A stretch of DNA of 61,486 nt, from positions 1-61,486 of the forward strand of contig JBKJLC010000057.1 of assembly GCA_046597055.1 (NCBI GenBank), in the 5' to 3' direction. The notes under the pieces are model-generated. The model was not told the DNA's origin and did not search any database. It worked only from the letters and a program-made list of their open reading frames with translations. The stretch is from Kofleriaceae bacterium. Its GTDB lineage: Bacteria; Myxococcota_A; Polyangia; Haliangiales; Haliangiaceae. Below are positions 11,522-23,636 of the stretch, one piece after another (within the stretch, counting starts at the first letter, position 1; each line of letters opens with the position of its first letter). The translations under genes were made by a program, and so were the position numbers.

Positions 11522-12799
11522 TCAGTCGTCGGTCTCGGTGACCAGGCCGTAGCGATGGGCCAGCTCGCTGAGGTGGCTGCGGTCCATCTTCACCGCGCGG
11601 GCCGCCTTCGACAGGTTGCCGTCGTGCGCCGGCAGCAGCTCGCCGAGGTAGCGCTTCTCCCAGTCGCTGGTCGCGCGGCCCTTGGCGTCGCGGAACGACA
11701 GCTCGGTGTCCATGGACGGCTCGTCCTCGAGCAGCGGCGCGCCGACCAGCGCGCGCTCGATGGCGCTGCGCAGCTCGCGCACGTTGCCCCGCCAGACGCC
11801 GCGCATCATGGCCCGCACCAGCTCGACCGGCGGCGCCGCGGTCGGATCGGCGAGCAGCTCGCGGTAGAACGACGCGACCAGCATGGCGACGTCGTCGCGG
11901 CGATCACGCAGCGGCGGCAGCACCACCCGCACGGTGTTGAGCCGGTACCAGAGGTCGGAGCGAAACGTGCCCTGGTTGACCTCGCGGCGGAGATCTCGGT
12001 GGGTCGCGGCGATCAGGCGCACGTCGATCGGGACCTCGCGGCTCGAGCCGACCCGACGGATCACGCGACGCTCGAGCGCGCGCAGGAGCTTGGGCTGGAG
12101 GTCGAGCGGCAGCTCGCCGATCTCGTCGAGGAGGACGGTGCCGCCGCTGGCCGACTCGAACAGCCCGACCCGGGCCTCGACCGCGCCCGTGAAGGCCCCG
12201 CGCTCGTGCCCGAACAGCTCGGACTCGAGCAGGGTCCCGGGTAGCGCACCGCAGTCGACGACCACGAACGGCCCCGACCCGCGCCGGCTGACCTCGTGGA
12301 CCGCCTCGGCCAGCGCGCTCTTGCCAGTGCCGGTCTCACCCTCGATCAGGATGGTGGCCTCGGCGACCGCGACCCGCTCGAGCAGCGCGAACACCCGCCG
12401 CATCGCGACGCTGCGACCGAGCACCCGCCCGAAGTGATCGTGGGGCGACAGCGCCTCGCTGACGGTGTCGTCGAGGAGCTCGATCGCGAGCACGCTCTCG
12501 CCGATCGCGATGGTGTCGCCGGACGCGAGCACCGCGCTGGTGACGCGGTGACCGGACACGAAGGTGCCGTTGGTGCTGCCAAGATCCTCGCAGTGGAAGC
12601 CGTGGTCGCCGATGCGGATCGTGCAGTGATGGCGCGACACGCAGCGATCGCGCAGCCGCAGCAACTGCCCGGTGCCGGAGCCGACCGTGATCTCCTCGGC
12701 GGTCGACTCGACCGCCAGCGGGGCGTCGGGGCCGCTCATCACGACGACCCGGAAGCGAGCTATTTCCACGCGATCGCGGGTTATCCGACGGGTGCCCAT
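11522..12799 (-). CDS. FHA-domain sigma54 enhancer-binding protein (FHA-AAA-Fis HTH)
   Basis: VSRHHC and DLGSTNGT (FHA), [42 protein letters not shown]. Confidence 0.95.
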
Positions 12800-12814
12800 G
12801 TGTGGCCACAGTTC

Positions 12815-12830
12815 AGCAACCAACGTGCCA
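12815..12830 (-). promoter_or_regulatory. sigma54 -24/-12 promoter (EBP gene)
   Basis: TGGCACGTTGGTTGCT, consensus match. Confidence 0.85.
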
Positions 12831-12911
12831 CTGCCGCTCCCCAATCAATGTCGCGCGCTTGGCCGGCGGGCGCCGAATACCGAGCTTCGGTTGCGGGCTC
12901 CAGCCAACAGA

Positions 12912-12938
12912 AGCTGGGTACCCAGCTCCCAGCTGGGT
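12912..12938. promoter_or_regulatory. Palindromic site, candidate upstream activator sequence
   Basis: AGCTGGGTACCCAGCT perfect 16-bp palindrome plus a third AGCTGGGT at 12931-12938. Confidence 0.5.
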
Positions 12939-12958
12939 GCCACGTCCGCGTCTCAGAT

Positions 12959-13930
12959 TCAGAGATGGCCGTCGCCGGCGATCTCGTCGACGCCGAACAC
13001 GGTTCCGGACAGGGCCAGGCCCAGCGAGGACCAGGTCAGGCCGCCGTCGGCGGTCGACAGCACCTCGCCGTCGTCGCCGGCCGCGAGCCCCACGCCGTGC
13101 GCGTTGACGTGGACCGTGCGCAGCGTGCCGACCCCGCGGGTCGCGATCGCCACCGCGTCGCGGCCGTCGATCCGCGCGATCACGCCACCGGCGCCGACCG
13201 CGATCACGTCACCGCTGCCGGTGACCCACGCGCCGTGCAGGTCGAGCTCGCGGCCGAGATCGATCGTGCGCCAGCTGGCGCCGCCGTCGTCGCTGCGCAG
13301 GAGCGCGCGGCCGGCCCCGGCGGCGACGCCCCGGGCGCCGTCGTGCGACATCGCGACCACCCGTGCGCCATCGAGGCGCGCGACCTGCCCGGCCGTGCCG
13401 ACCCCGGCGTCGTAGCGCCAGACCTGCCCCTCCCCATCGAGCGCGAGCGCGCGATCACCACCGTGGCCGGCCGCGACCGTGAGCCACGAGGAGGCCGGAT
13501 CGACCGGCAGCGGGGCCCAGGTCGCGCCCGAGTCAGGCGACATCATCAAGAGGCCATCGCCGCCGACATAGATCGAGTCGCCGCCCGCCGCCGCGACCGA
13601 GCGCAGCGTGCGGGTGGTCTCGAGATCGATGACGTCCCAGCTGGCGCCGCCGTCGAACGTGCGCAGCAGCGTGCCGAGCTCGCCGACGACAAACGCGGTG
13701 TCGAGGCCGCGACACGCGATGCCGAGCAGGTCGTGCTCGCTGTCGAGCTGGTAGCCGTCGCCCATCACGCCGCGCTGATCGAGGTCGGCCATCAAGCCGT
13801 CCTCGCCCACCAGCCAGGCGCCACCGCCACCACCGCCGTCACCGGTGTCCTTCTTCTTGTCGCAGCCGGTGGCGAGCACCGCCACCGCGCACGCGCTGGC
13901 GAAGAGAGTCTGCTTCATCGATCGCTTCAT
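12959..13930 (-). CDS. Ycf48/BNR-repeat beta-propeller lipoprotein
   Basis: Lipobox ATGC; repeated S/TxDxGxS/TW Asp-boxes; GGAGA RBS. Confidence 0.88.
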   Translation of the reverse strand: MKRSMKQTLFASACAVAVLATGCDKKKDTGDGGGGGGAWLVGEDGLMADLDQRGVMGDGYQLDSEHDLLGIACRGLDTAFVVGELGTLLRTFDGGASWDVIDLETTRTLRSVAAAGGDSIYVGGDGLLMMSPDSGATWAPLPVDPASSWLTVAAGHGGDRALALDGEGQVWRYDAGVGTAGQVARLDGARVVAMSHDGARGVAAGAGRALLRSDDGGASWRTIDLGRELDLHGAWVTGSGDVIAVGAGGVIARIDGRDAVAIATRGVGTLRTVHVNAHGVGLAAGDDGEVLSTADGGLTWSSLGLALSGTVFGVDEIAGDGHL

Positions 13931-14139: not shown

Positions 14140-16293
14140 ATGACCAGACGAATGCTCGCGTTGTTCGCCGCATGCAGCGGGGCCTTCGCGCTCGGCTGTT
14201 TCGGAGCGCCACCCGCGTCGGAGGGCGATCCGCTCCTCGACCCCGCCTGCCAGCTCGACACCCAGGGGGAGCGGACACCCGGCTATCCGTTCGACGTCGA
14301 TCGCTTCACCACGACCGTGCTGCCGGTGGTCGCACAGAGCTGCGGCGCCGGCGGCTGTCACGGGTCGCCGACCGGCAACGGCGGCTTCACCGTGTGGGCC
14401 GCTGCGCAGCCCGGCGACTGCGACTTCGGCAAGACCTTCAACAACGTCATCGGCAAGATCGATCTGACCACCCCCGCCAACAGCCGCCTGACCGCGGCGG
14501 TGTCGGGCGGCTCGGCGACCCACCCGTTCACGTTCCCGGCGACCGCGCCCGGGCTCGAGGCGCTCAAGGGCTTCGTCGACGCCGCCGCCGCCACCGCCGC
14601 GGCCGACGGGGGTGGCGTGACGCCGCCGCCGGGCCCGAGCCCGTTCAACTACACCGTCTACCAGCAGGTCGTGCAGCCCGCGCTCAACGCGGCGACCTGC
14701 GCGGCCGCCGGCTGCCACGGCAGCGGCGCCGCCGGCTTCACCCTGGCCGCGGCGCCGGCTGCCGGCAGCCCCGAGATGGAAGCCAACTTCATCGCGGTCA
14801 CCAGCCGCGCCAACCTGGCCGCGCCGGCCAACTCGGTCTTCTACGTACGCTCGACCGTGCTCCACGCCGGCGGCGGTTCGCGCGCGGTCGACGGCACCGC
14901 GGGCGCCGCCATCCTCGCCTGGATCGAGGACGCCAAGGCCAACGCCGGCAACGGCGGCGGTGGTGGCAACCCGACCTGCGCGCCGATCGACAAGTTCAAC
15001 GCCGGCGTGTTCCGCACCGAGATCTTGCCGATCCTCTCCGGTGATCTCGATCTCAACGCGGCCAACGGCCAGGGCCAGGGCGCCGGCTGCATGTCGGGCG
15101 CCTGCCACGGCATCGACCGCGGCCCCGGCACGTTCAGCCTGCTGCCGACCGCCGACACCGCGACCCAGCTGCAGAACTTCGCCTGCTTCGTCAACCTGAC
15201 CTCGCCGTCGGCGTCCGAGGTGCTGGCGTGCCCGCTCAACGACCCGCGGTGCCGACGCTACCCGCACCCGGGCCAGGACGTGCTCGGGGGCGCCAACGAC
15301 CTCAACTACCAGCGGCTGCTCGCCTTCCTCTACGGCGCCAAGTCCGACGTGTCGCCGCTCGACTTCGCGTTCTTCGTCCGCCGGATCAACCCGATCTTCA
15401 ACGACGTCAACGCGGTCGAGGCCGGCGCGCAGGGCCGCACCTGCGGCGACGCGATCGGCTGCCACGGCGTGAGCGTCGCCGGCCAGGCGCCGCCCAACGG
15501 CTCGGACTTCGCGATCATCCCCAACGCGGCCGACCTGGGCCGGCTCAGCTTCAACTTCGTGTCGGCGACCGGGTTCGTGAACTTCCTCAACCCGGGTGAG
15601 AGCTCGCTGTTCCTCTACCCGACCGACGAGATCGCCAACCGCGCCGACCACCCGTTCGCGACCGGGCTGCCTCACCCCGGCGGTCGCGACTTCGCGGTCG
15701 ACAGCCTCGAGGCCCAGGCGATCCTGCAGTGGGCCGCCGGCCTGCGCCCCGACCGCAACGGCTTCCAGCGCAACTGGCTGGTGCTCGGCGACTTCCCGGC
15801 CAGCCGGATCGCCGACCAGACCCTGGTCGACGAGCCCACCGCGATCCCGACCATCTTCGACCGCGGTGGCGGCTCGTTCAACCGCGGCGAGTGGGACGGC
15901 TTGTTCTCCGACCGCGCCGAGGTCGACCTCAACGTCGCCTTTCCGCGCGCGGCCACCGGCGGCCGGGTCGCCTACGCGGTGTCGTACGTCGTCAACACGG
16001 TGCCGCGCACCCAGCTGGCTCAGCTGGTGGTCGCCACCAACAACCCGATCCGCATCTACGTGAACGGCGCGGTGGTGGCGCAGAACGACCAGAGCGGCGG
16101 CGCCACCGCGCTGCTGACCCTGCCCGCGGCCGGTGGCACCACCCCGCCGGTGCGGATCATGATCAAGGCACTCCAGCGAGCCGACGACGCCCGGTTCGCC
16201 TTCACCGCCCAGCTCCGCGACGAGCTCGGCGTCCTGCTCACCGATCGCACCGGCGAGCTCGTGTTCACCCTCGGCCCGACTGGAGGCATCTGA
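14140..16293 (+). CDS. Lipoprotein with four cytochrome-c-like domains (CX4CH x3, CX5CH x1) and a C-terminal beta-sandwich
   Basis: Lipobox ALGC; CGAGGCH, CAAAGCH, CMSGACH, CGDAIGCH, each preceded by F/Y-x3-V/I-x-P and followed by a distal His (HP, HAGG, HPG, HPGG). Confidence 0.75.
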   Translation: MTRRMLALFAACSGAFALGCFGAPPASEGDPLLDPACQLDTQGERTPGYPFDVDRFTTTVLPVVAQSCGAGGCHGSPTGNGGFTVWAAAQPGDCDFGKTFNNVIGKIDLTTPANSRLTAAVSGGSATHPFTFPATAPGLEALKGFVDAAAATAAADGGGVTPPPGPSPFNYTVYQQVVQPALNAATCAAAGCHGSGAAGFTLAAAPAAGSPEMEANFIAVTSRANLAAPANSVFYVRSTVLHAGGGSRAVDGTAGAAILAWIEDAKANAGNGGGGGNPTCAPIDKFNAGVFRTEILPILSGDLDLNAANGQGQGAGCMSGACHGIDRGPGTFSLLPTADTATQLQNFACFVNLTSPSASEVLACPLNDPRCRRYPHPGQDVLGGANDLNYQRLLAFLYGAKSDVSPLDFAFFVRRINPIFNDVNAVEAGAQGRTCGDAIGCHGVSVAGQAPPNGSDFAIIPNAADLGRLSFNFVSATGFVNFLNPGESSLFLYPTDEIANRADHPFATGLPHPGGRDFAVDSLEAQAILQWAAGLRPDRNGFQRNWLVLGDFPASRIADQTLVDEPTAIPTIFDRGGGSFNRGEWDGLFSDRAEVDLNVAFPRAATGGRVAYAVSYVVNTVPRTQLAQLVVATNNPIRIYVNGAVVAQNDQSGGATALLTLPAAGGTTPPVRIMIKALQRADDARFAFTAQLRDELGVLLTDRTGELVFTLGPTGGI

Positions 16294-19202
16294 TGTCACG
16301 CCTGACCTGCACCCTGCCCTTGGCCCTCGGGCTCCTCCTCACCGCCGGCTGCGTGAGCGGCGTCGGCGACTCGCCCCCCACCAGCCCCGATGACCCCGGC
16401 GCGGTCGATCCGCTGCCGCCCCCGCCCCCGCCCGAGCCGCCGCCGCCGGCGCCCGGCGTCTACAAGCGCGGCTCGCTGACGCCGCTCTACCAGCTCACGC
16501 CCCGGGCCGAGTACGGCCGCTTCACCGAGAGCGCCGTCACGATGAAGGACGCCGACTTCGTCTCGACCGCCAACAACTTCGTCACCGCCAGCCAGAAGCT
16601 CGACGAGGTCGCCGCCCAGATCGCCCGCGAGCGCGGCGTGCCCTCGGTCAACCTGGCGCCCAAGGCCGAGGACCGCCAGCGCGCCCAGCAGATCCCGTTC
16701 CGCGGCAACCCGTCCGACGTCGACGTCGTCCGCATCGACGGCCGCCGCAAGGCGTACCTGCCGCTCGGTGGCGACCTGATGACGGTCGGCAACGAGATCG
16801 CCGCGGTCGACCTCGACAGCGGCCTGGTCACCCGGGTGAAGGTCGGCGTCCGCCCCCAGCGGATCGCCATCCATCCGGCCGGCCTGGTCTTCGTCTGCAA
16901 CCAGTACTCGAACTACATCTCCATCATCGACGCCCGCACCGATCAGCCGCTGCGCAACGCCGCCGGCCCGATCGAGATCAAGACCGAGTTCTACTGCTCC
17001 GACCTCGCGTTCGTGCCGCGCAGCGTGGCCGCGCCCGACCCCGACGAGCAGGACCTGTACGTCGCCAACAGCTGGCGGGCCAGCGTCCTCAAGTACGGCC
17101 TGACCGTCACCCGCGACGCGCTGTCCGACGACCCGATCGACGTGCGGGTCACCACGCCGGCGGCCCCGGCCACGCCCAACCAGCCCGAGGCCGAGATCAG
17201 CGGCGTCGGCGCCAACCCGTACCGCATCACGGTCAGCCAGGACCTGCGCGCGCTGTTCGTCGCCAACAACCGTGGCGGCGAGCTGGCCCGGATCGACCTG
17301 GGCACCCGCGCGGTCCGCCGCATCGCGATCAACGCGCCGGTGTCCGACGTCATCCAGGCCAACGACATCCTGATCGTCCCGACCACCACCATCGACCGCG
17401 GCCTGCCCGACGGTCGCGATCAGCAGCCGACCCAGATCGTCGCCGGCGCGGTGCGGGTCACCGGCATGGATGGCGCCCAGCACATCGCCCACCCGGGCGC
17501 GCTGTTCGACAACACCAAGGCCTACAACTTCGAAGATCTCCGCAACGGGCTCCTGACCGTCGACGCCCAGCTGAACGGCGGCGCGCCGCCGGTCTACTTC
17601 ACGGACTCGGTCTCGGCCGAGCCCAACTTCGCCGCCGCGCAGAAGGTGCTGCAGGGCACGCTGCCTCAGGCGGTGGTGGTCAACGCCGCGCGCAGCCGGG
17701 CCTTCCTGGCGATGTCGGGCTCCGACACGATCCAGGAGGTGACGATCAACGCCGGTGCCTTCCGCATCGCCGACGCCCCCGGCGCGCTGATGCGGACCTC
17801 CGAGCGCCCGTTCGCGCTCGCGCTCGACGAGGTGGCCCGCGAGCTGCTGGTCGCGACCTGGGGCGGCGAGACGCTCGAGGTGTTCGACACCGCCAGCGGC
17901 ACCCGGACCCGCCGCATCGACCTCGGCTACGCGATCGCCGACTACCCGGCGACCAACATGGAGCGCGGCGAGTACCTCTTCTACAACACCGGGTGGTCGA
18001 ACAACGGCACCAAGTCGTGCGCGACCTGCCACTACGACGAGCTCCTGCTCGACGGCGTCGGCTACGCCAACGGCGCCACCGCGCCGACCGCGTATCACAA
18101 GGTCCCGGCCAACTTCAACCTGATGACGACTGACTCCTACTTCTGGAATGGTTCGTTCGCCAATGGCACGTACGCGTCCCTGGCGGCAGATGCCCAGTCG
18201 CGCACCAACTGCGAGCTGATCCTGTTCGGCCTCACCGAGGGCATCGCGTCCGACCCGGCCCGCCGGGTCGGTGACCCCGGCAACCGCGTGCGCAGCGGCC
18301 AGGACGCGCAGTGCCGGCCCGACACCTCGGGCCCCGGGATCCTGCCCCGCAACTTCGCCCAGATCGCCGGCATCATCGCGGCCCAGAAGCTGGTTCGCGA
18401 ACAGGTGGTGCGCGCCGCCACCGGCCTCAGCTTCAACGACGTCGCGCGCATCGTCGACTTCTACTCGGTGTCCGAGCTGCGGCTGCCGCCCAACCCGCTG
18501 ACCTACCTGGCCGCCCGCAACGAGCTCGGCGCGGCCGACGCGGCCAAGCTGGCCCGCGGCAAGGAGCTGTTCACCACCGGCGGCTGCACCGGTTGCCACG
18601 ACCCGGGCAACCAGCGCCATCCGTACAGCGACGGCCTCGAGCACGGGTCGGGCACCGCGTGGTCGTCCAACTTCGTCGACACCTACAGCACCGACGCCCG
18701 GATCGTGAACTCCATCGGCGCCATCCCGCAGCTGATGCTGGAGGCCATCTCCGGCTCGACCCCGGACCGCGAGATCAACATCCACCTCGACCCGATCGAC
18801 TACTTCGCGCCGTTCTGCTTCGACGTCACGTCATGCCTGGTGTTCGAGGATCCGCTGGCGGTGCGCGGCAACCTGGCCGCCGAGACCGAGCGCCTCGACG
18901 TGCTGGTCCAGATCAACCTGGCCAACGTCGACCGCGGCTTCGTCCCTGGCAACCTGCGCGGTCAGCCGGCCACCAACACGCCGTCGCTGCGCGGCATCTG
19001 GTTCCAGACCAACTACCTGCGCCACGGCCACGCGCACACGCTGAAGGAGACCATCCTGGCCCCCGGCCACCCGGCGCTCGGCGCCGGCGAGCGCGGCTAC
19101 GCCATCGATGGGCTCGGCAACCGGGACGTCCACGGCAAGACAACCACGATGTCGGCCGCCGACGTCGACGCGCTCTACCTGTTCATCCAGTCGATCGAGT
19201 AG
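16293..19202 (+). CDS. Beta-propeller (YVTN/YncE-like) plus di-heme cytochrome c peroxidase/MauG-like lipoprotein
   Basis: TGATG coupling; lipobox TAGC; propeller repeats (VKVGVRPQRIAI, LYVAN, LFVAN); GEYLF...SCATCH...YFWNG; GKELF...GCTGCH; NTPSLRGIW. Confidence 0.85.
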   Translation: MSRLTCTLPLALGLLLTAGCVSGVGDSPPTSPDDPGAVDPLPPPPPPEPPPPAPGVYKRGSLTPLYQLTPRAEYGRFTESAVTMKDADFVSTANNFVTASQKLDEVAAQIARERGVPSVNLAPKAEDRQRAQQIPFRGNPSDVDVVRIDGRRKAYLPLGGDLMTVGNEIAAVDLDSGLVTRVKVGVRPQRIAIHPAGLVFVCNQYSNYISIIDARTDQPLRNAAGPIEIKTEFYCSDLAFVPRSVAAPDPDEQDLYVANSWRASVLKYGLTVTRDALSDDPIDVRVTTPAAPATPNQPEAEISGVGANPYRITVSQDLRALFVANNRGGELARIDLGTRAVRRIAINAPVSDVIQANDILIVPTTTIDRGLPDGRDQQPTQIVAGAVRVTGMDGAQHIAHPGALFDNTKAYNFEDLRNGLLTVDAQLNGGAPPVYFTDSVSAEPNFAAAQKVLQGTLPQAVVVNAARSRAFLAMSGSDTIQEVTINAGAFRIADAPGALMRTSERPFALALDEVARELLVATWGGETLEVFDTASGTRTRRIDLGYAIADYPATNMERGEYLFYNTGWSNNGTKSCATCHYDELLLDGVGYANGATAPTAYHKVPANFNLMTTDSYFWNGSFANGTYASLAADAQSRTNCELILFGLTEGIASDPARRVGDPGNRVRSGQDAQCRPDTSGPGILPRNFAQIAGIIAAQKLVREQVVRAATGLSFNDVARIVDFYSVSELRLPPNPLTYLAARNELGAADAAKLARGKELFTTGGCTGCHDPGNQRHPYSDGLEHGSGTAWSSNFVDTYSTDARIVNSIGAIPQLMLEAISGSTPDREINIHLDPIDYFAPFCFDVTSCLVFEDPLAVRGNLAAETERLDVLVQINLANVDRGFVPGNLRGQPATNTPSLRGIWFQTNYLRHGHAHTLKETILAPGHPALGAGERGYAIDGLGNRDVHGKTTTMSAADVDALYLFIQSIE

Positions 19203-19212
19203 GAGGCCGCCC

Positions 19213-20556
19213 ATGCGCGCTCGCACCATGTCTCTGATCTGCTCGTTGATGGTGACGGCCACCGTGTCGGCGGTCCACGCCGAGGATCGCGCGGCGGTCT
19301 TCACCCGGCGCGGCACCAACCTGCGCGCCCGTCCCGGCGAGACCGCGCCGGTGGTGGCCCGCGCCGACTCCGGCGAGGAGCTCACCGTGGTCGGTAGCCG
19401 CGGCCGCTGGCTGCGGGTCCGCCGCGGCAAGCGGGTCGGGTGGGTGACGCGCAGCCAGGTCGAGGACCGCGGGGCGACCGCGCCGCGCCAGCGGGCCCAG
19501 CGCACCGGCTTCTCGGGCAGGCCCCTCGAGGACGCGCTGCGGGTCGCGGTCACGATCGACCGGGTCCGCGGCTTCGACGACCCGACCACCAAGGCGAACC
19601 TGGTGCTCGACCTCGAGCGCGGCGACACCGTCACCGTGCTCGGCCGCGGGCACGACGGCTGGCTGCTGGTCGAGGCCAGCGCCGGTGGCGTCGGCTGGAT
19701 TCCAGCGACCGCCGTGACCGACGGCGGCCGGTTTGCCGGCGACCCGCGGCGAGCCCCGGGCGCCCCACCCGCGACGGCCCGTGACCTGACGGTGGTGGTC
19801 ACCGACGACGACACGGTCGCCCCGACCAACGCCGGCCCCGCGCCACGCGCGGCGACCTCGCGGCGGCGGGTGGTCGGGACCCTGGTCGCGACCGCGGGTG
19901 CGCAGACCTTCGCGATGCGCCAGGTCGGCGCCGGCGGGGAGGCGCTGGCGACCGCGCGCGGAGCGGCGGCGGCGTTTGCCGCGAGCGCCGGCGTGCGCCT
20001 CGCCAGCAACCTCTGGGTGGGCGCCTCGGCCGACGGCGAGCTCGGCACCGGCGCGCTCGTCTACACGACCCCGGGCGAGGCGTCGCCCCCGATGACGACC
20101 CGGGCGACCAGCCTCGATGGCCGGGCCCAGCTCGGCTGGGGCCGGCGCTGGCAGGTGGTGGCCCGCGGTGGCTACCACTTCGGCGCGCTCACCATCGCGT
20201 CCGACCGGGCCGAGCCCATGCTGGTCGGCGAACAGGTCGCCGGGCTCACCGTCGGGCTGGGCGGCGCCGTGCCGCTCGGCCGCCGGGCCGCGCTGACCAC
20301 CGCGATCGACGTCATGCCGGCCGGCGCCCAGCGGCCATCCGAGCTGCTGCCCGGCATCCTCTACGCGAACGGGATGCGCGCGGCCTGGTTGCACACGACC
20401 GTGTCGCTGCGGCTACCGGCCCGCATGGTGGCCGCCGTGAGCTACCGCGGCACCCTCGCCACCGTCGATCTGACCGACGGCGCCGCCGCGCCGACCACCG
20501 CCACCCGCACCGACCAGGCACACAGCGTCACCGCCGGCCTCGGGCTGGCGTGGTGA
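19213..20556 (+). CDS. SH3b-domain outer-membrane beta-barrel protein
   Basis: AGGAGG RBS; signal peptide; two SH3b domains (NLRARPG...WLRV...GWV; GDTVTV...WLLV...GWIP); amphipathic strands ending GLGLAW. Confidence 0.78.
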   Translation: MRARTMSLICSLMVTATVSAVHAEDRAAVFTRRGTNLRARPGETAPVVARADSGEELTVVGSRGRWLRVRRGKRVGWVTRSQVEDRGATAPRQRAQRTGFSGRPLEDALRVAVTIDRVRGFDDPTTKANLVLDLERGDTVTVLGRGHDGWLLVEASAGGVGWIPATAVTDGGRFAGDPRRAPGAPPATARDLTVVVTDDDTVAPTNAGPAPRAATSRRRVVGTLVATAGAQTFAMRQVGAGGEALATARGAAAAFAASAGVRLASNLWVGASADGELGTGALVYTTPGEASPPMTTRATSLDGRAQLGWGRRWQVVARGGYHFGALTIASDRAEPMLVGEQVAGLTVGLGGAVPLGRRAALTTAIDVMPAGAQRPSELLPGILYANGMRAAWLHTTVSLRLPARMVAAVSYRGTLATVDLTDGAAAPTTATRTDQAHSVTAGLGLAW

Positions 20557-20573: not shown

Positions 20574-20789
20574 ATGGCCTTCAAGGACGTCAAGCAAGAG
20601 CTCATCGATCAGTTCGAGCATCGCTACCTGTGTCACCTGCTCGAGCGTCACGGATGCAACCTGACTGCCGCCGAGCGCTCATCCGGCCTCTCCCGCCATC
20701 ACCTGCGCGCGCTGATGCGCAAGCACGGCCTGTACGAGGCGGTCGTGAGGACGCGGATGGCCTCCCTGTTGCAGAAGGAGCTGTCATGA
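20574..20789 (+). CDS. Stand-alone Fis-type HTH protein (71 aa)
   Basis: AAGGAG RBS; FKDVKQELIDQFEHRYLCHLLERHGCNLTAAERSSGLSRHHLRALMRKHGL resembles the EBP C-terminal HTH; ATGA overlap with pntA. Confidence 0.75.
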   Translation: MAFKDVKQELIDQFEHRYLCHLLERHGCNLTAAERSSGLSRHHLRALMRKHGLYEAVVRTRMASLLQKELS

Positions 20790-21931
20790 GGATCGCAATC
20801 CCCCGAGAGACCCTGCCGCGCGAGGCCCGCGTGGCGATCACCCCGGACACCGTGGCCCGCCTGATCGCCAAGAATTTCGAGGTCTCGGTTCAGCGCGGCG
20901 CCGGCCTGGGCGCGCAGATCAGCGATCCCGAGTACGAGGCGGCCGGCGCCCGACTGGAGCCTGACGCCCCGGTGCTGTGGCGTGCGGGCGAGGTCATCGT
21001 GAAAGTGCGGCCGCCGACTGACGACGAGATTGGCCTGCTGAGCTCCGGTCAGACGCTGATCAGCCTGCTCTACCCGCTCGCCGACGGCGAGAAGGTGCGC
21101 GACCTGGCCGCGCGCGGGGCGACCGTGCTCGCGGCCGACATGGTGCCGCGGTCGACCCTCGCGCAGATGATGGACGTGCTGAGCTCGCAGGCGACGATCG
21201 CCGGCTACCGCGCCGCGCTGCTCGCCGCCACCGCGCTGCCCAAGCTGTTCCCGATGTTGATGACGGCGGCCGGCACCATCACGCCGGCGCGCGTGCTGGT
21301 GCTCGGCGCCGGCGTCGCCGGTCTGCAGGCGATCGCGACCAGCCGCCGGCTCGGCGCGGTGGTCGAGGCCTTCGACGTGCGCAAGGCGGCCAAGGAGCAG
21401 GTCGAGAGCCTGGGCGCCCGCTTCATCGAGGTGCCGTCAGACGAGGACGCCGCGACCGCCGGCGGCTACGCCCGCGAGGTGTCCGAGGAATACAAGGCTG
21501 CGCAGGCGGCGCTGCTGCTGCAGGCGCTCGGCCGCTGCGACGCGGTGATCACCACCGCGCTCATCCCGGGCCGGCGCGCCCCGGTCCTGATCACCGCCGA
21601 GATGGTCCGGGTGATGAAGCGGGGCGCGGTGATCGTCGACATGGCCGCCGAGCAAGGCGGCAACTGCGCGCTGACCCGACCCGGCCAGCGCAAGATCACT
21701 GACGGCGGCGTGCTCATCGTCGGCGAGCTCGACCTGGCCAGCCAGGTCGCGGTCCACGCCAGCCAGATGTACGCGCGCAACATGGAGAAGCTGCTGCTGC
21801 ATCTCTATCGCGGGCCCACCGGTGGGCTCGACGTCGCCGACGAGATCGTGAAGGGCATGTTGATCATCCGCGAGGGCGCGGTCGTGCACGGCGGGGTCAC
21901 CGCCGCCGCGCAGAAGGAGCTGGCCGCGTGA
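20786..21931 (+). CDS. pntA: NAD(P) transhydrogenase alpha subunit part 1 (dI)
   Basis: MRIAIPRE...EARVAITP, DVLSSQATIAGYRA, GAGVAGLQAIAT, GGYA, TTALIPG, DMAAEQGGNC. Confidence 0.96.
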   Translation: MRIAIPRETLPREARVAITPDTVARLIAKNFEVSVQRGAGLGAQISDPEYEAAGARLEPDAPVLWRAGEVIVKVRPPTDDEIGLLSSGQTLISLLYPLADGEKVRDLAARGATVLAADMVPRSTLAQMMDVLSSQATIAGYRAALLAATALPKLFPMLMTAAGTITPARVLVLGAGVAGLQAIATSRRLGAVVEAFDVRKAAKEQVESLGARFIEVPSDEDAATAGGYAREVSEEYKAAQAALLLQALGRCDAVITTALIPGRRAPVLITAEMVRVMKRGAVIVDMAAEQGGNCALTRPGQRKITDGGVLIVGELDLASQVAVHASQMYARNMEKLLLHLYRGPTGGLDVADEIVKGMLIIREGAVVHGGVTAAAQKELAA

Positions 21932-22233
21932 GCACCACCCTCGTCATGGGCCTGTACGTCTTCGTCCTCGGCGCGTTCGTCGGCTGGCAGGTGCTGTCGA
22001 AGGTGCCCCACCTCCTCCACACGCCGCTGATGAGCGCGACCAACGCCATCTCCGGCATCTCGCTGGTCGGCTCGCTGGTCGCGGCCGGCAGCAACCACGA
22101 CGCCCTCACCACCCTGCTCGGCTCGATCGCGGTCACCGCGGCCACGATCAACGTCGTCGGTGGCTTCCTCATCACCGACCGGATGCTGCGCATGTTCAAG
22201 AAGAAGCCCGCCCGCGCCGGAGTCGTCCGATGA
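21928..22233 (+). CDS. pntA: NAD(P) transhydrogenase alpha subunit part 2
   Basis: LHTPLMSATNAISG, INVVGGFLITDRMLRMF. Confidence 0.95.
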   Translation: MSTTLVMGLYVFVLGAFVGWQVLSKVPHLLHTPLMSATNAISGISLVGSLVAAGSNHDALTTLLGSIAVTAATINVVGGFLITDRMLRMFKKKPARAGVVR

Positions 22234-23636
22234 CCACCACCGACCTCGTCCAGCTGCTCTACCTCGGGGCCTCGGTCCTGTTCATCCTCGGCCTGCAGCA
22301 GCTGGGCGCCGCCGACACCGCCCGCCGCGGCGTGCGCTTCGCCGAGCTCGGCATGGCGCTCGCGGTGATCGGCACGCTGCTGCACCACGAGATCGTCAGC
22401 TACCAGTGGATCGTCATCAGCATCGTGATCGGCTCGGCGATCGGCACCGCGATGGGCCTGTACATCCCGATGGTGAAGATGCCCGAGCGCATCGCGCTGT
22501 CGCACGCGTTCGGCGGGCTCGCGGTCGCCCTGGTCGGCGTGTCCGAGTACCTGCGCCACGGCAGCCAGGCGACGGTCCTGACCATCGCGGCGATCGGCCT
22601 CGAGGTCTTCCTCGGCGCGCTGACCTTCACCGGCAGCCTGATGGCGTTCGGCAAGCTGCAGGGCTCGATCACCGGCAAGCCGGTGACCTACCCGGGCCAG
22701 AACCTCACCAACTTGATGGCGGTCGCGGTCGCGGTCGCCGGCATCGGCTACCTCGTCGCCAACCCGTCGGCGGCCACCGTCTTCTACGTCGTGCTCGGCC
22801 TGGGTGTCGTGCTCGGCGTGCTGCTGGTGCTGCCGATCGGCGGGGCCGACATGCCGGTCGTGATCTGCCTGCTCAACGCCTACGCCGGTCTGGCCGCGGC
22901 GGCGACCGGTTTCGCGCTCGGGAACAACGTCCTCATCATCTGCGGCGCGCTCGACGGCGGCTCGGGCGTGATCCTCGGCCTCATGATGAGCAAGGCGATG
23001 AACCGCTCGTTCCGCAACGTCGTGTTTGGCGCGGTCGGCAAGGCGCCGGCGGCCGCGGCCGGCGCCGCCGGGGTCGCCACCCCGACCAGCGCGGCCAACG
23101 TCGGCTCGGTCGACGACGCGGTCGCGGTGCTGACCAGCGCCCGCTCGGTGATCATCGTCCCCGGCTACGGGATGGCGGTGTCGCAGGCCCAGCACATCGT
23201 GCGCGACCTCGCCAGCGCGCTCGCCGCCCAGGGCGTGACCGTGCGCTACGCGATCCACCCGGTCGCCGGCCGCATGCCCGGCCACATGAACGTGCTGCTC
23301 GCCGAGGCCAACGTGCCCTACGAGCAGCTGTTCGATCTCGACACGATCAACGACGACTTCGGCTCCACCGACGTCGCGATCGTGGTCGGCGCCAACGACG
23401 TGGTGAACCCGGCGGCGCGGACCCAGCCGTCGAGCCCGATCTACGGCATGCCGGTGCTCGCGGTCGACCAGGCGAAGACGGCGATCTGCTTCAAGCGGTC
23501 GTTCAACCCGGGCTTCGCCGGCATCGAGAACGAGCTGTTCACGCGGCCGAGCACGATGATGATCCTCGGCGACGCGCGCCAGAGCCTGCAGGCGCTGGTG
23601 CAGGCGGTGAAGGGCGAGCTGCGGCTGGCGGCGTGA
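22230..23636 (+). CDS. pntB: NAD(P) transhydrogenase beta subunit
   Basis: IGGADMPVVI, MSKAMNRS, PGYGMAV, IHPVAGRMPGHMNVLLAEA, GANDVVNP. Confidence 0.97.
   Translation: MTTTDLVQLLYLGASVLFILGLQQLGAADTARRGVRFAELGMALAVIGTLLHHEIVSYQWIVISIVIGSAIGTAMGLYIPMVKMPERIALSHAFGGLAVALVGVSEYLRHGSQATVLTIAAIGLEVFLGALTFTGSLMAFGKLQGSITGKPVTYPGQNLTNLMAVAVAVAGIGYLVANPSAATVFYVVLGLGVVLGVLLVLPIGGADMPVVICLLNAYAGLAAAATGFALGNNVLIICGALDGGSGVILGLMMSKAMNRSFRNVVFGAVGKAPAAAAGAAGVATPTSAANVGSVDDAVAVLTSARSVIIVPGYGMAVSQAQHIVRDLASALAAQGVTVRYAIHPVAGRMPGHMNVLLAEANVPYEQLFDLDTINDDFGSTDVAIVVGANDVVNPAARTQPSSPIYGMPVLAVDQAKTAICFKRSFNPGFAGIENELFTRPSTMMILGDARQSLQALVQAVKGELRLAA

Follow-up and report, generated by a model that had tools for sequence, protein, structure and literature searches.

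How could a protein without a single CXXCH motif be a multiheme cytochrome, and what would it do in the cell? This question is raised by P0001, the product of an open reading frame in the 61,486-nucleotide contig JBKJLC010000057.1 of a Kofleriaceae bacterium (assembly GCA_046597055.1); the window in this text is this whole stretch, the positions in Table 1 are counted in it, and residue numbers refer to P0001 (717 amino acids) or to the neighbouring protein P0002 (969 amino acids). The explanation favoured here, with a probability of about 0.6, is that P0001 is a four-heme protein which would act as the membrane-tethered electron donor of P0002, a propeller/di-heme enzyme of peroxidase type, a reading drawn from sequence comparison. 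Somewhat more probable, if heme binding is granted, is the donor role itself, which is argued by analogy.

Table 1. Features of the P0001 locus in the window
Feature	Position	Strand	Details or basis
P0001, four-repeat cytochrome c-like lipoprotein, 717 amino acids	14140..16293	+	Open reading frame translation, relatives
Signal peptide with terminal lipobox A-L-G-C20	14140..14199	+	Sequence; lipid anchor predicted
Repeat 1, about residues 49-152	14284..14595	+	CX4CH C68-C73-H74 14341-14361; distal His128 14521-14523
Repeat 2, about residues 167-270	14638..14949	+	CX4CH C187-C192-H193 14698-14718; distal His242 14863-14865
Repeat 3, about residues 285-402	14992..15345	+	CX4CH C317-C322-H323 15088-15108; distal His376 15265-15267
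Repeat 4, about residues 405-535	15352..15744	+	CX5CH C435-C441-H442 15442-15465; distal His512 15673-15675
Galactose-binding-like beta-sandwich at the C-terminus, of the GH2 sugar-binding or PA14 kind	15754..16290	+	AlphaFold model, Foldseek, structural alignment scores
P0002, 969-amino acid lipoprotein: YVTN-type propeller and di-heme peroxidase domain, like fused HZS beta-gamma	16293..19202	+	Start overlaps P0001 stop codon
P0002 CXXCH sites	18018-18032 and 18585-18599	+	Sequence
P0002 Trp618; Cys640; His947	18144-18146; 18210-18212; 19131-19133	+	Sequence
Exported protein, two SH3 domains and C-terminal part barrel-like by eye (putative outer-membrane barrel)	19213..20556	+	Start uncertain
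NAD(P) transhydrogenase genes pntA/pntB	20630..23636	+	Link to system uncertain
Upstream genes in divergent orientation: propeller lipoprotein (YCF48/BNR) and FHA-type sigma-54 activator	11522..13918	-	Domain matches

The four repeats and their conservation

The open reading frame and its four motifs, three CX4CH and one CX5CH, stand exactly where the initial annotation had placed them, and the F/Y-x3-V/I-x-P and N/D-x3-P-x2-S sequences it had listed are present in all four repeats, each with a later His. No CXXCH occurs in the P0001 sequence. The repeats are about 105-130 amino acids long, carry the distal His 53-70 residues beyond the motif, and are homologous to each other in all six pairwise comparisons (hhalign probability 96.2-99.6%). 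When P0001 was shuffled 100,000 times, four C-x(2-6)-C-H motifs never appeared and three appeared once. Contigs from two runs had zero differences over the stretches covered, both runs coming from one study and one of them possibly from the source sample.

The searches for relatives returned 253 and 167 sequences; the full-length set used for conservation comprised 151 and the close-relative set 120. Relatives with a name are recorded as hypothetical proteins, from Kofleriaceae, Polyangia or Myxococcales, and the genome loci belong to Kofleriaceae, Haliangium and other Myxococcota-type bins. The motif Cys, Cys and His are kept in 118-120 of the 120 close relatives, and the distal His of sites 1 to 4 stands in its own column in 147, 150, 151 and 151 of the 151 full-length relatives, so that the residues whose conservation had been proposed as a check are near-invariant. 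The lipobox C20 is retained in 145 of the 151. Six Cys outside the heme motifs (Cys37, 94, 280, 349, 364, and 371) are found in 148-151 of 151 and, judging by sequence, probably form disulfides, one in repeat 1 (Cys37/Cys94) and two in repeat 3 (Cys280/349/364/371). Several homologs (L002, L043, L051, L056-L060), mostly from long-contig assemblies, look frameshifted, which probably reflects sequencing errors.

The spacing between the two Cys is less fixed than the residues themselves, although 140 of the 151 full-length relatives are free of CXXCH. Site 1 is CX4 in 138 sequences, CX2 in 10, CX6 in 2, and CX5 in 1; site 2 is CX4 in 146, CX5 in 4, and CX3 in 1; site 3 is CX4 in 150 and CX5 in 1; and site 4 is CX5 in 123, CX4 in 23, and CX2 in 5. 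A FastTree phylogeny was built from 40 of the 151 rows, with every CX2 row kept, the rest thinned at 62% identity, and the motif columns removed. On this tree CX2 and longer spacings were switched at least six times at site 1 and at least twice at site 4, the counts being approximate with 13 of 37 inner branches open. One ortholog with CXXCH at site 1 exceeds the cut-off of Pfam Cytochrom_C (PF00034) and is the only one among 39 proteins scanned to pass any cytochrome cut-off.

The repeat as a probable heme-binding domain

P0001 is cryptic to annotation because Pfam is blank for it and NCBIfam gives a weak match. The latter, TIGR01904 (CxxxxCH/CxxCH cytochromes), was rejected as its family: the score was 14.4 bits against a cut-off of 27 (E 0.024), covering 19 residues and no paired CXXCH, and the likeness of the TIGR01904 / PF09698 cytochromes to P0001 is local, at the CX4CH motif. 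A profile of 105 repeats searched against the PDB gave heme proteins in the first three places: FoxE (E 1.2e-4), PccH (0.007), and the alpha subunit of hydrazine synthase (HZS; 0.013). The Atlas neighbours of the repeat, which count as one source, are Cytochrom_C (28% of members), PSCyt1, and PccH clusters.

The link to the alpha-II domain of HZS emerged only with an alignment of eight rows and not with a single sequence. One HZS-alpha-like C-terminal domain from the same genome had no PDB match to HZS and reached a probability of 5.8% with the repeat profile, while the alignment of eight such C-terminal domains (alpha-II site CX4CH in four, CX2CH in three, and CXCH in one) matched the whole HZS alpha-II domain (5C2V) at E 6.2e-21 and the repeat profile at 98.3% and E 2.2e-14. 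His242 of P0001 is placed within the stretch preceding the last helix that contains His745 of the 5C2V chain, which is His772 (offset 27, fixed by His587), and the distal-His loop corresponds by profile alignment to the segment holding a FoxE Met. The heme of HZS alpha-II is described as c-type, ligated by two His, in a domain with the type I cytochrome c fold (PMC12607021; PMC12758564). These comparisons make the repeat a homolog of this bis-His domain of HZS and, with weaker support, of FoxE and PccH; it is therefore very likely that P0001 carries c-type heme. The reading of the repeats as bis-His class I-like heme c domains is thus supported by the invariant Cys/Cys/His/His, by orthologs with CXXCH at the same sites, and by the alpha-II homology. 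A model of FoxE has each Met as ligand to the heme in the opposite half (PMC10654088), and by this analogy the distal His may be swapped between P0001 repeats.

The likeness to HZS alpha-II (5C2V_A) covers the F-x3-I-x-P helix, the Cys..Cys-His, and the distal His before the last helix, and the HZS alpha gene, like that of P0001, sits with a beta-gamma(-like) gene. Unlike HZS alpha, P0001 has four tandem copies in place of one and CX4/CX5 in place of CX2; it lacks the propeller and the catalytic heme alpha-I and adds the lipobox and the sugar-binding-type sandwich. FoxE (5MAB), PccH (4RLR), and PSCyt1 (PF07635) are alike by profile matches or Atlas neighbours; FoxE also shares a tandem repeat and an auxiliary disulfide (PMC10654088), but has CXXCH and a distal Met where P0001 has His in the same loop. 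These proteins are a more fitting comparison than Desulfovibrio tetraheme cytochrome c3, on which the initial annotation had leaned. Cytochrome c3 resembles P0001 in CX4CH and in its four His/His hemes (predicted in P0001), but holds the four hemes in about 110 amino acids with the distal His ahead of the motifs, whereas each P0001 site has its own 105-130-amino acid domain and a distal His after the motif. Membership in the c3 class (class III) was rejected, as there was no c3 match in Pfam or the PDB and the four repeats are separate.

Genes for CcmE, CcmF-H, and CcmC-like proteins of the cytochrome c maturation (Ccm) system are present in the host genome; at L066:1955-5303 the CcmE is of the CxxxY type, and a CcmH-like domain forms one protein with CcmF. 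The CxxxY-type CcmE is known in D. desulfuricans, which shares it with the P0001 host, and in archaea (PMC9084895). A ResB-type system was not found in the host genome (94% complete), and none of its three Cytochrom_C_asm matches is on the P0001 contig; therefore no dedicated lyase stands beside P0001. Such lyases are known for CXXCK and CX15CH (PMC12285233). The CX4CH/CX5CH motifs of P0001 would be handled by the general Ccm system of the host. Engineered longer motifs are reportedly matured by E. coli Ccm.

The exclusive use of long motifs, first taken for a peculiarity of P0001, turned out to be what this domain normally shows in Myxococcota. Among 301 genomes of the phylum, 183 contain a match to the repeat profile (spacing not counted). 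The 19 motif-bearing matches in the host genome (E < 0.5), four of them in P0001, comprise six CX2, two CX3, seven CX4, two CX5, and two CX6, i.e., 13 non-CXXCH copies, and spacings of 8/4/4/2 are found in 65 of 72 HZS-alpha-like proteins, two from Pendulispora species among them. Long motifs are therefore a habit of the domain, the spacing of which ranges, as read from the sequences, from CX1 to CX8. Cytochrome inventories use CXXCH or Pfam, both of which P0001 evades under relatives named "hypothetical protein"; with the domain this widespread and mostly non-CXXCH in the host, a real heme pool is overlooked. The expectation that multiheme surveys would miss P0001 holds for those restricted to CXXCH, but at least one recent survey already admits CXnCH (10.64898/2026.05.27.727921). 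With four hemes P0001 would have 0.56 hemes per 100 amino acids, against medians of 1.13 and 3.7 in that survey, the latter for credible conduit candidates; by its sequence it is a string of tandem monoheme domains and not a stacked-heme multiheme. With its changes of spacing at a single site, the family also lends itself to tests of how heme lyases read their substrate.

The domain type, CX4CH attachment, and HZS-like gene pairs are already known. Presumably the planctomycete DUF1549/DUF1553 proteins also carry the same CX4CH domain. The described motifs are CXCK, CX2CK, CX3CH, CX4CH, CX11CH, CX15CH, and CX17CH (PMC11492766; PMC9250108), and CX5CH to CX8CH are missing from the motif lists of these two papers; among the papers listed that pair heme with a long-motif term, none mentions CX5CH or CXXXXXCH. 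No description of the P0001 family was found in searches of the open-access literature. Myxobacterial homologs of beta-gamma may be listed in supplements of PMC12758564, a paper whose text has no "Myxococc" match.

The C-terminal domain was also correctly recognized as a galactose-binding-like sandwich. The AlphaFold2 model of P0001 (112-row alignment) has a pLDDT of 88.8 and a pTM of 0.67; the linkers that follow repeats 1 and 2 are disordered in it, and its residues 539-697 resemble a sugar-binding domain of glycoside hydrolase family 2 (GH2) with Z 10.7 (root-mean-square deviation (rmsd) 2.8, 122 aligned) and PA14 with Z 9.4. Fold searches with the full model are dominated by this sandwich, Foldseek giving PA14 at E near 1e-4.

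The partner P0002 and the proposed role of the pair

P0002 has the parts of an HZS beta-gamma-like protein, namely, a propeller fused to a di-heme domain, two CXXCH, and a His at the position of gamma His332. Its best PDB match is HZS gamma (E 1.9e-11), and the His aligned with His332 is His947. Trp618, Gln635, Cys640, Glu641, both CXXCH, and His947 are present in 120 of 120 P0002 relatives. Trp618 aligns with the Trp of cytochrome c peroxidase (CcP) and lies 38 residues past the proximal His, the same offset as HZS gamma His144; Trp in place of this His is described as a mark of the non-anammox (anammox, anaerobic ammonium oxidation), peroxidase-like type (PMC12758564). Cys640 lies 61 residues past the second Cys, compared with 60 for the third heme-linked Cys of HZS gamma (Cys165), a position outside the aligned blocks, with Cys674 as a possible disulfide partner. 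The MauG and MbnH models gave P0002 19.5 bits (cut-off 443.85) and 24.9 bits (cut-off 362.85), respectively. Anammox HZS was rejected for the pair because the partner has Trp618 instead of His144 and the alpha subunit is missing, P0001 having neither a propeller nor an HZS_alpha domain. Closer are the non-anammox HZS-like alpha/beta-gamma pairs (PMC12758564), which share the fused propeller and di-heme domain, the CcP/MauG Trp, a Cys near the gamma-Cys165 position, and extra heme modules; unlike them, the P0001 operon is without an alpha-like gene, and its extra hemes would sit in a separate alpha-II-type protein and not in c554 domains.

The genes are coupled beyond the window. Among 30 related loci found by tblastn, partner adjacency was scored in the 25 with at least 600 bases downstream (five were too short), and a P0002-type gene adjoins the P0001-type gene in 20. 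In 147 genomes of the order a P0001-type match is present in 28 and the partner in 27, all within these 28; the match of the sole genome without a partner lies where a contig ends, and in one of the 28 the match is limited to a short two-repeat form. The spread of the pair is patchy (5 of 16 genomes in the host genus, 4 of 91 in another genus). A three-repeat form also precedes the partner gene (L086), and five-repeat homologs adjoin both beta-gamma-like and alpha-like genes (L100, L101). The fixed pairing offers a two-protein system in which the role of the widespread non-anammox HZS relatives can be probed.

The proposed course of events is as follows. P0001 would be exported and lipid-anchored via its lipobox, and the general Ccm of the host with its CxxxY-type CcmE, the genes of which are present, would attach four low-spin His/His hemes, one per domain, through CX4CH/CX5CH and the distal His. 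Repeats 1-2 would ride on flexible linkers, with repeats 3-4 and the sandwich as a constant core, as suggested by the model and by the three- and five-repeat relatives. Electrons may then pass from P0001 to the His/His heme 2 of P0002, the one with His947, by analogy with the electron uptake from a cytochrome partner proposed for HZS heme gamma-II (PMC12607021). From heme 2 they would reach the open active-site heme 1 by way of Trp618. A Trp-mediated route of this kind is familiar from peroxidases, and by the same analogy the small substrate reduced at heme 1 would most likely be peroxide.

Several observations weigh against this explanation. Pfam finds no family for P0001 at E ≤ 1, including PF00034, PF07635, and PF22297. 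The fold check proposed for the repeats gave a mixed answer: the model of repeat 2 alone (pLDDT 95) has FoxE as its top VIA-align match (Z 4.7, rmsd 3.2, 77 aligned), followed by YhjA (Z 4.3), but unrelated helical proteins tie at Z 4.2, so that the lead is within noise, and Foldseek with this model returned no match; taken singly, a repeat has only a weak structural likeness to cytochromes. For HZS alpha-II itself no function has been assigned, and it is reported to be too far from the other HZS hemes for electron transfer (PMC12607021). In 5 of the 25 loci the neighbour is not a partner gene, four of these being second copies in assemblies whose other copy is adjacent, and some genomes have unlinked copies of either gene. 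Finally, co-occurrence among kin is non-independent evidence.

The same facts have to be weighed for other roles of P0001. MauG and MbnH modify products of neighbouring genes, and a MauG-like P0002 might oxidise a P0001 residue such as Trp546 or Trp585 of the sandwich (kept in 118 and 120 of 120 relatives, respectively); the tight gene coupling, the CcP/MauG Trp, and the invariant Gln635/Glu641 pair agree with this. It is nevertheless improbable, as the alignment pairs heme 2 of P0002 with the HZS gamma heme that has two His ligands, whereas MauG-type enzymes use a His/Tyr heme, and P0002 falls far under the cut-offs of both models. No better are the chances that P0001, at the surface or in the periplasm, conducts electrons in exchange with humic matter or minerals, as PccH does or FoxE in iron oxidation, and that the SH3/barrel protein forms the channel. 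FoxE and PccH are homologs of the repeat, FoxE is likewise encoded alongside a propeller protein (PMC10654088), and the putative barrel gene follows in 9 of the 30 loci; against this, FoxE is His/Met (PMC10654088) while every P0001 site has His, the heme density is far below the median of conduit candidates, and the barrel gene, its barrel predicted by eye, is absent from most loci.

A little less probable still is that the hemes serve as a redox or gas sensor or a charge store and not as a dedicated donor. Such a role would suit the fusion of a repeat 3 copy to ECF sigma factors (ECF, extracytoplasmic function) seen in some relatives (P0202, L090, L091), the sigma-54 activator gene nearby, and the lack of a known electron-transfer role of HZS alpha-II (PMC12607021), yet signalling domains are missing from P0001, no heme site is left open under invariant His/His ligation, and the constant neighbour is an enzyme and not a regulator. 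That the Cys pairs are disulfides or, with His, Zn sites, and that no heme is bound, is the least credible of all: the three further conserved Cys pairs make disulfides likely in P0001 and the fold match to cytochromes is weak, but the same sites interchange repeatedly with CXXCH, the repeat is homologous to heme-bound domains of solved structures, and His/Met CX4CH versions exist in the same genome, one of which matches PSCyt1 at E 0.0015.

Beyond the donor role of P0001 a wider proposal can be made tentatively, being itself rather doubtful: the pair would be a myxobacterial HZS-like module without the catalytic alpha, in which four alpha-II-type hemes are the dedicated partner of a beta-gamma-like enzyme, and the repeat would represent a large hidden class of c-type hemes with CX1CH to CX8CH served by one general Ccm. 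If so, natural CX5-CX8 motifs would be added to those described, the unexplained HZS heme alpha-II would gain an electron-relay ancestry, and heme counts would rise across the phylum.

Neighbouring genes and related loci

The SH3 gene lies near the P0001-type gene in 9 of the 30 tblastn loci, and the putative barrel part of its product has no PDB match. The pntAB genes are near in 11 of 30, downstream in some loci and upstream and divergent in others (L049, L052, L060). No sigma-70-type promoter was found at the P0001 locus, and terminators are not in excess. No RNA sample carrying the sequence was listed, a negative without bearing on expression.

The ECF sigma factor fusions (L090:6002-7816, L091:6092-8233, and P0202) carry at their C-terminus the repeat 3 copy with CX4/5CH and a distal His, and a small single-domain lipoprotein with the same repeat domain adjoins the fusion, which from its sequence is possibly a heme-linked one-component regulator. 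Two loci, G000:C130:18852-20365 (L096) and G000:C107:4072-5636 (L097), encode small lipoproteins that have CX4CH and a distal Met-Pro motif, one of them PSCyt1-like (E 0.0015); a short His/Met CX4CH protein has no PDB match. Both lipoproteins directly precede exported proteins in which an N-terminal CXXCH is joined to a barrel-like rest, by eye like a cytochrome-porin fusion, for which no Pfam match was found.

A widespread HZS-alpha-like family of about 1,000 amino acids (P0290-P0361; L065, L107, L108) carries the repeat two or three times at the N-terminus, the motifs being CX8CH or CX6CH, then CX4CH and CX4CH; at G000:C289:18872-25495 (L065) two alpha-like genes stand in tandem, with no beta-gamma gene in the region covered. 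In a recurrent cluster (L102-L106) an HZS-alpha-like gene comes first, then a CX4CH lipoprotein of one domain, a gene for DUF3570 (confirmed in two), and last a propeller/di-heme gene; the alpha-II site of L103 is CXCH, and L104 adjoins a molybdopterin oxidoreductase operon. Two-repeat lipoproteins are encoded downstream of an 11-heme cytochrome (ExtM-like, with one CX4CH site) in four loci (L109, L110, L112, L113), three of which adjoin genes resembling 2-oxoglutarate dehydrogenase.

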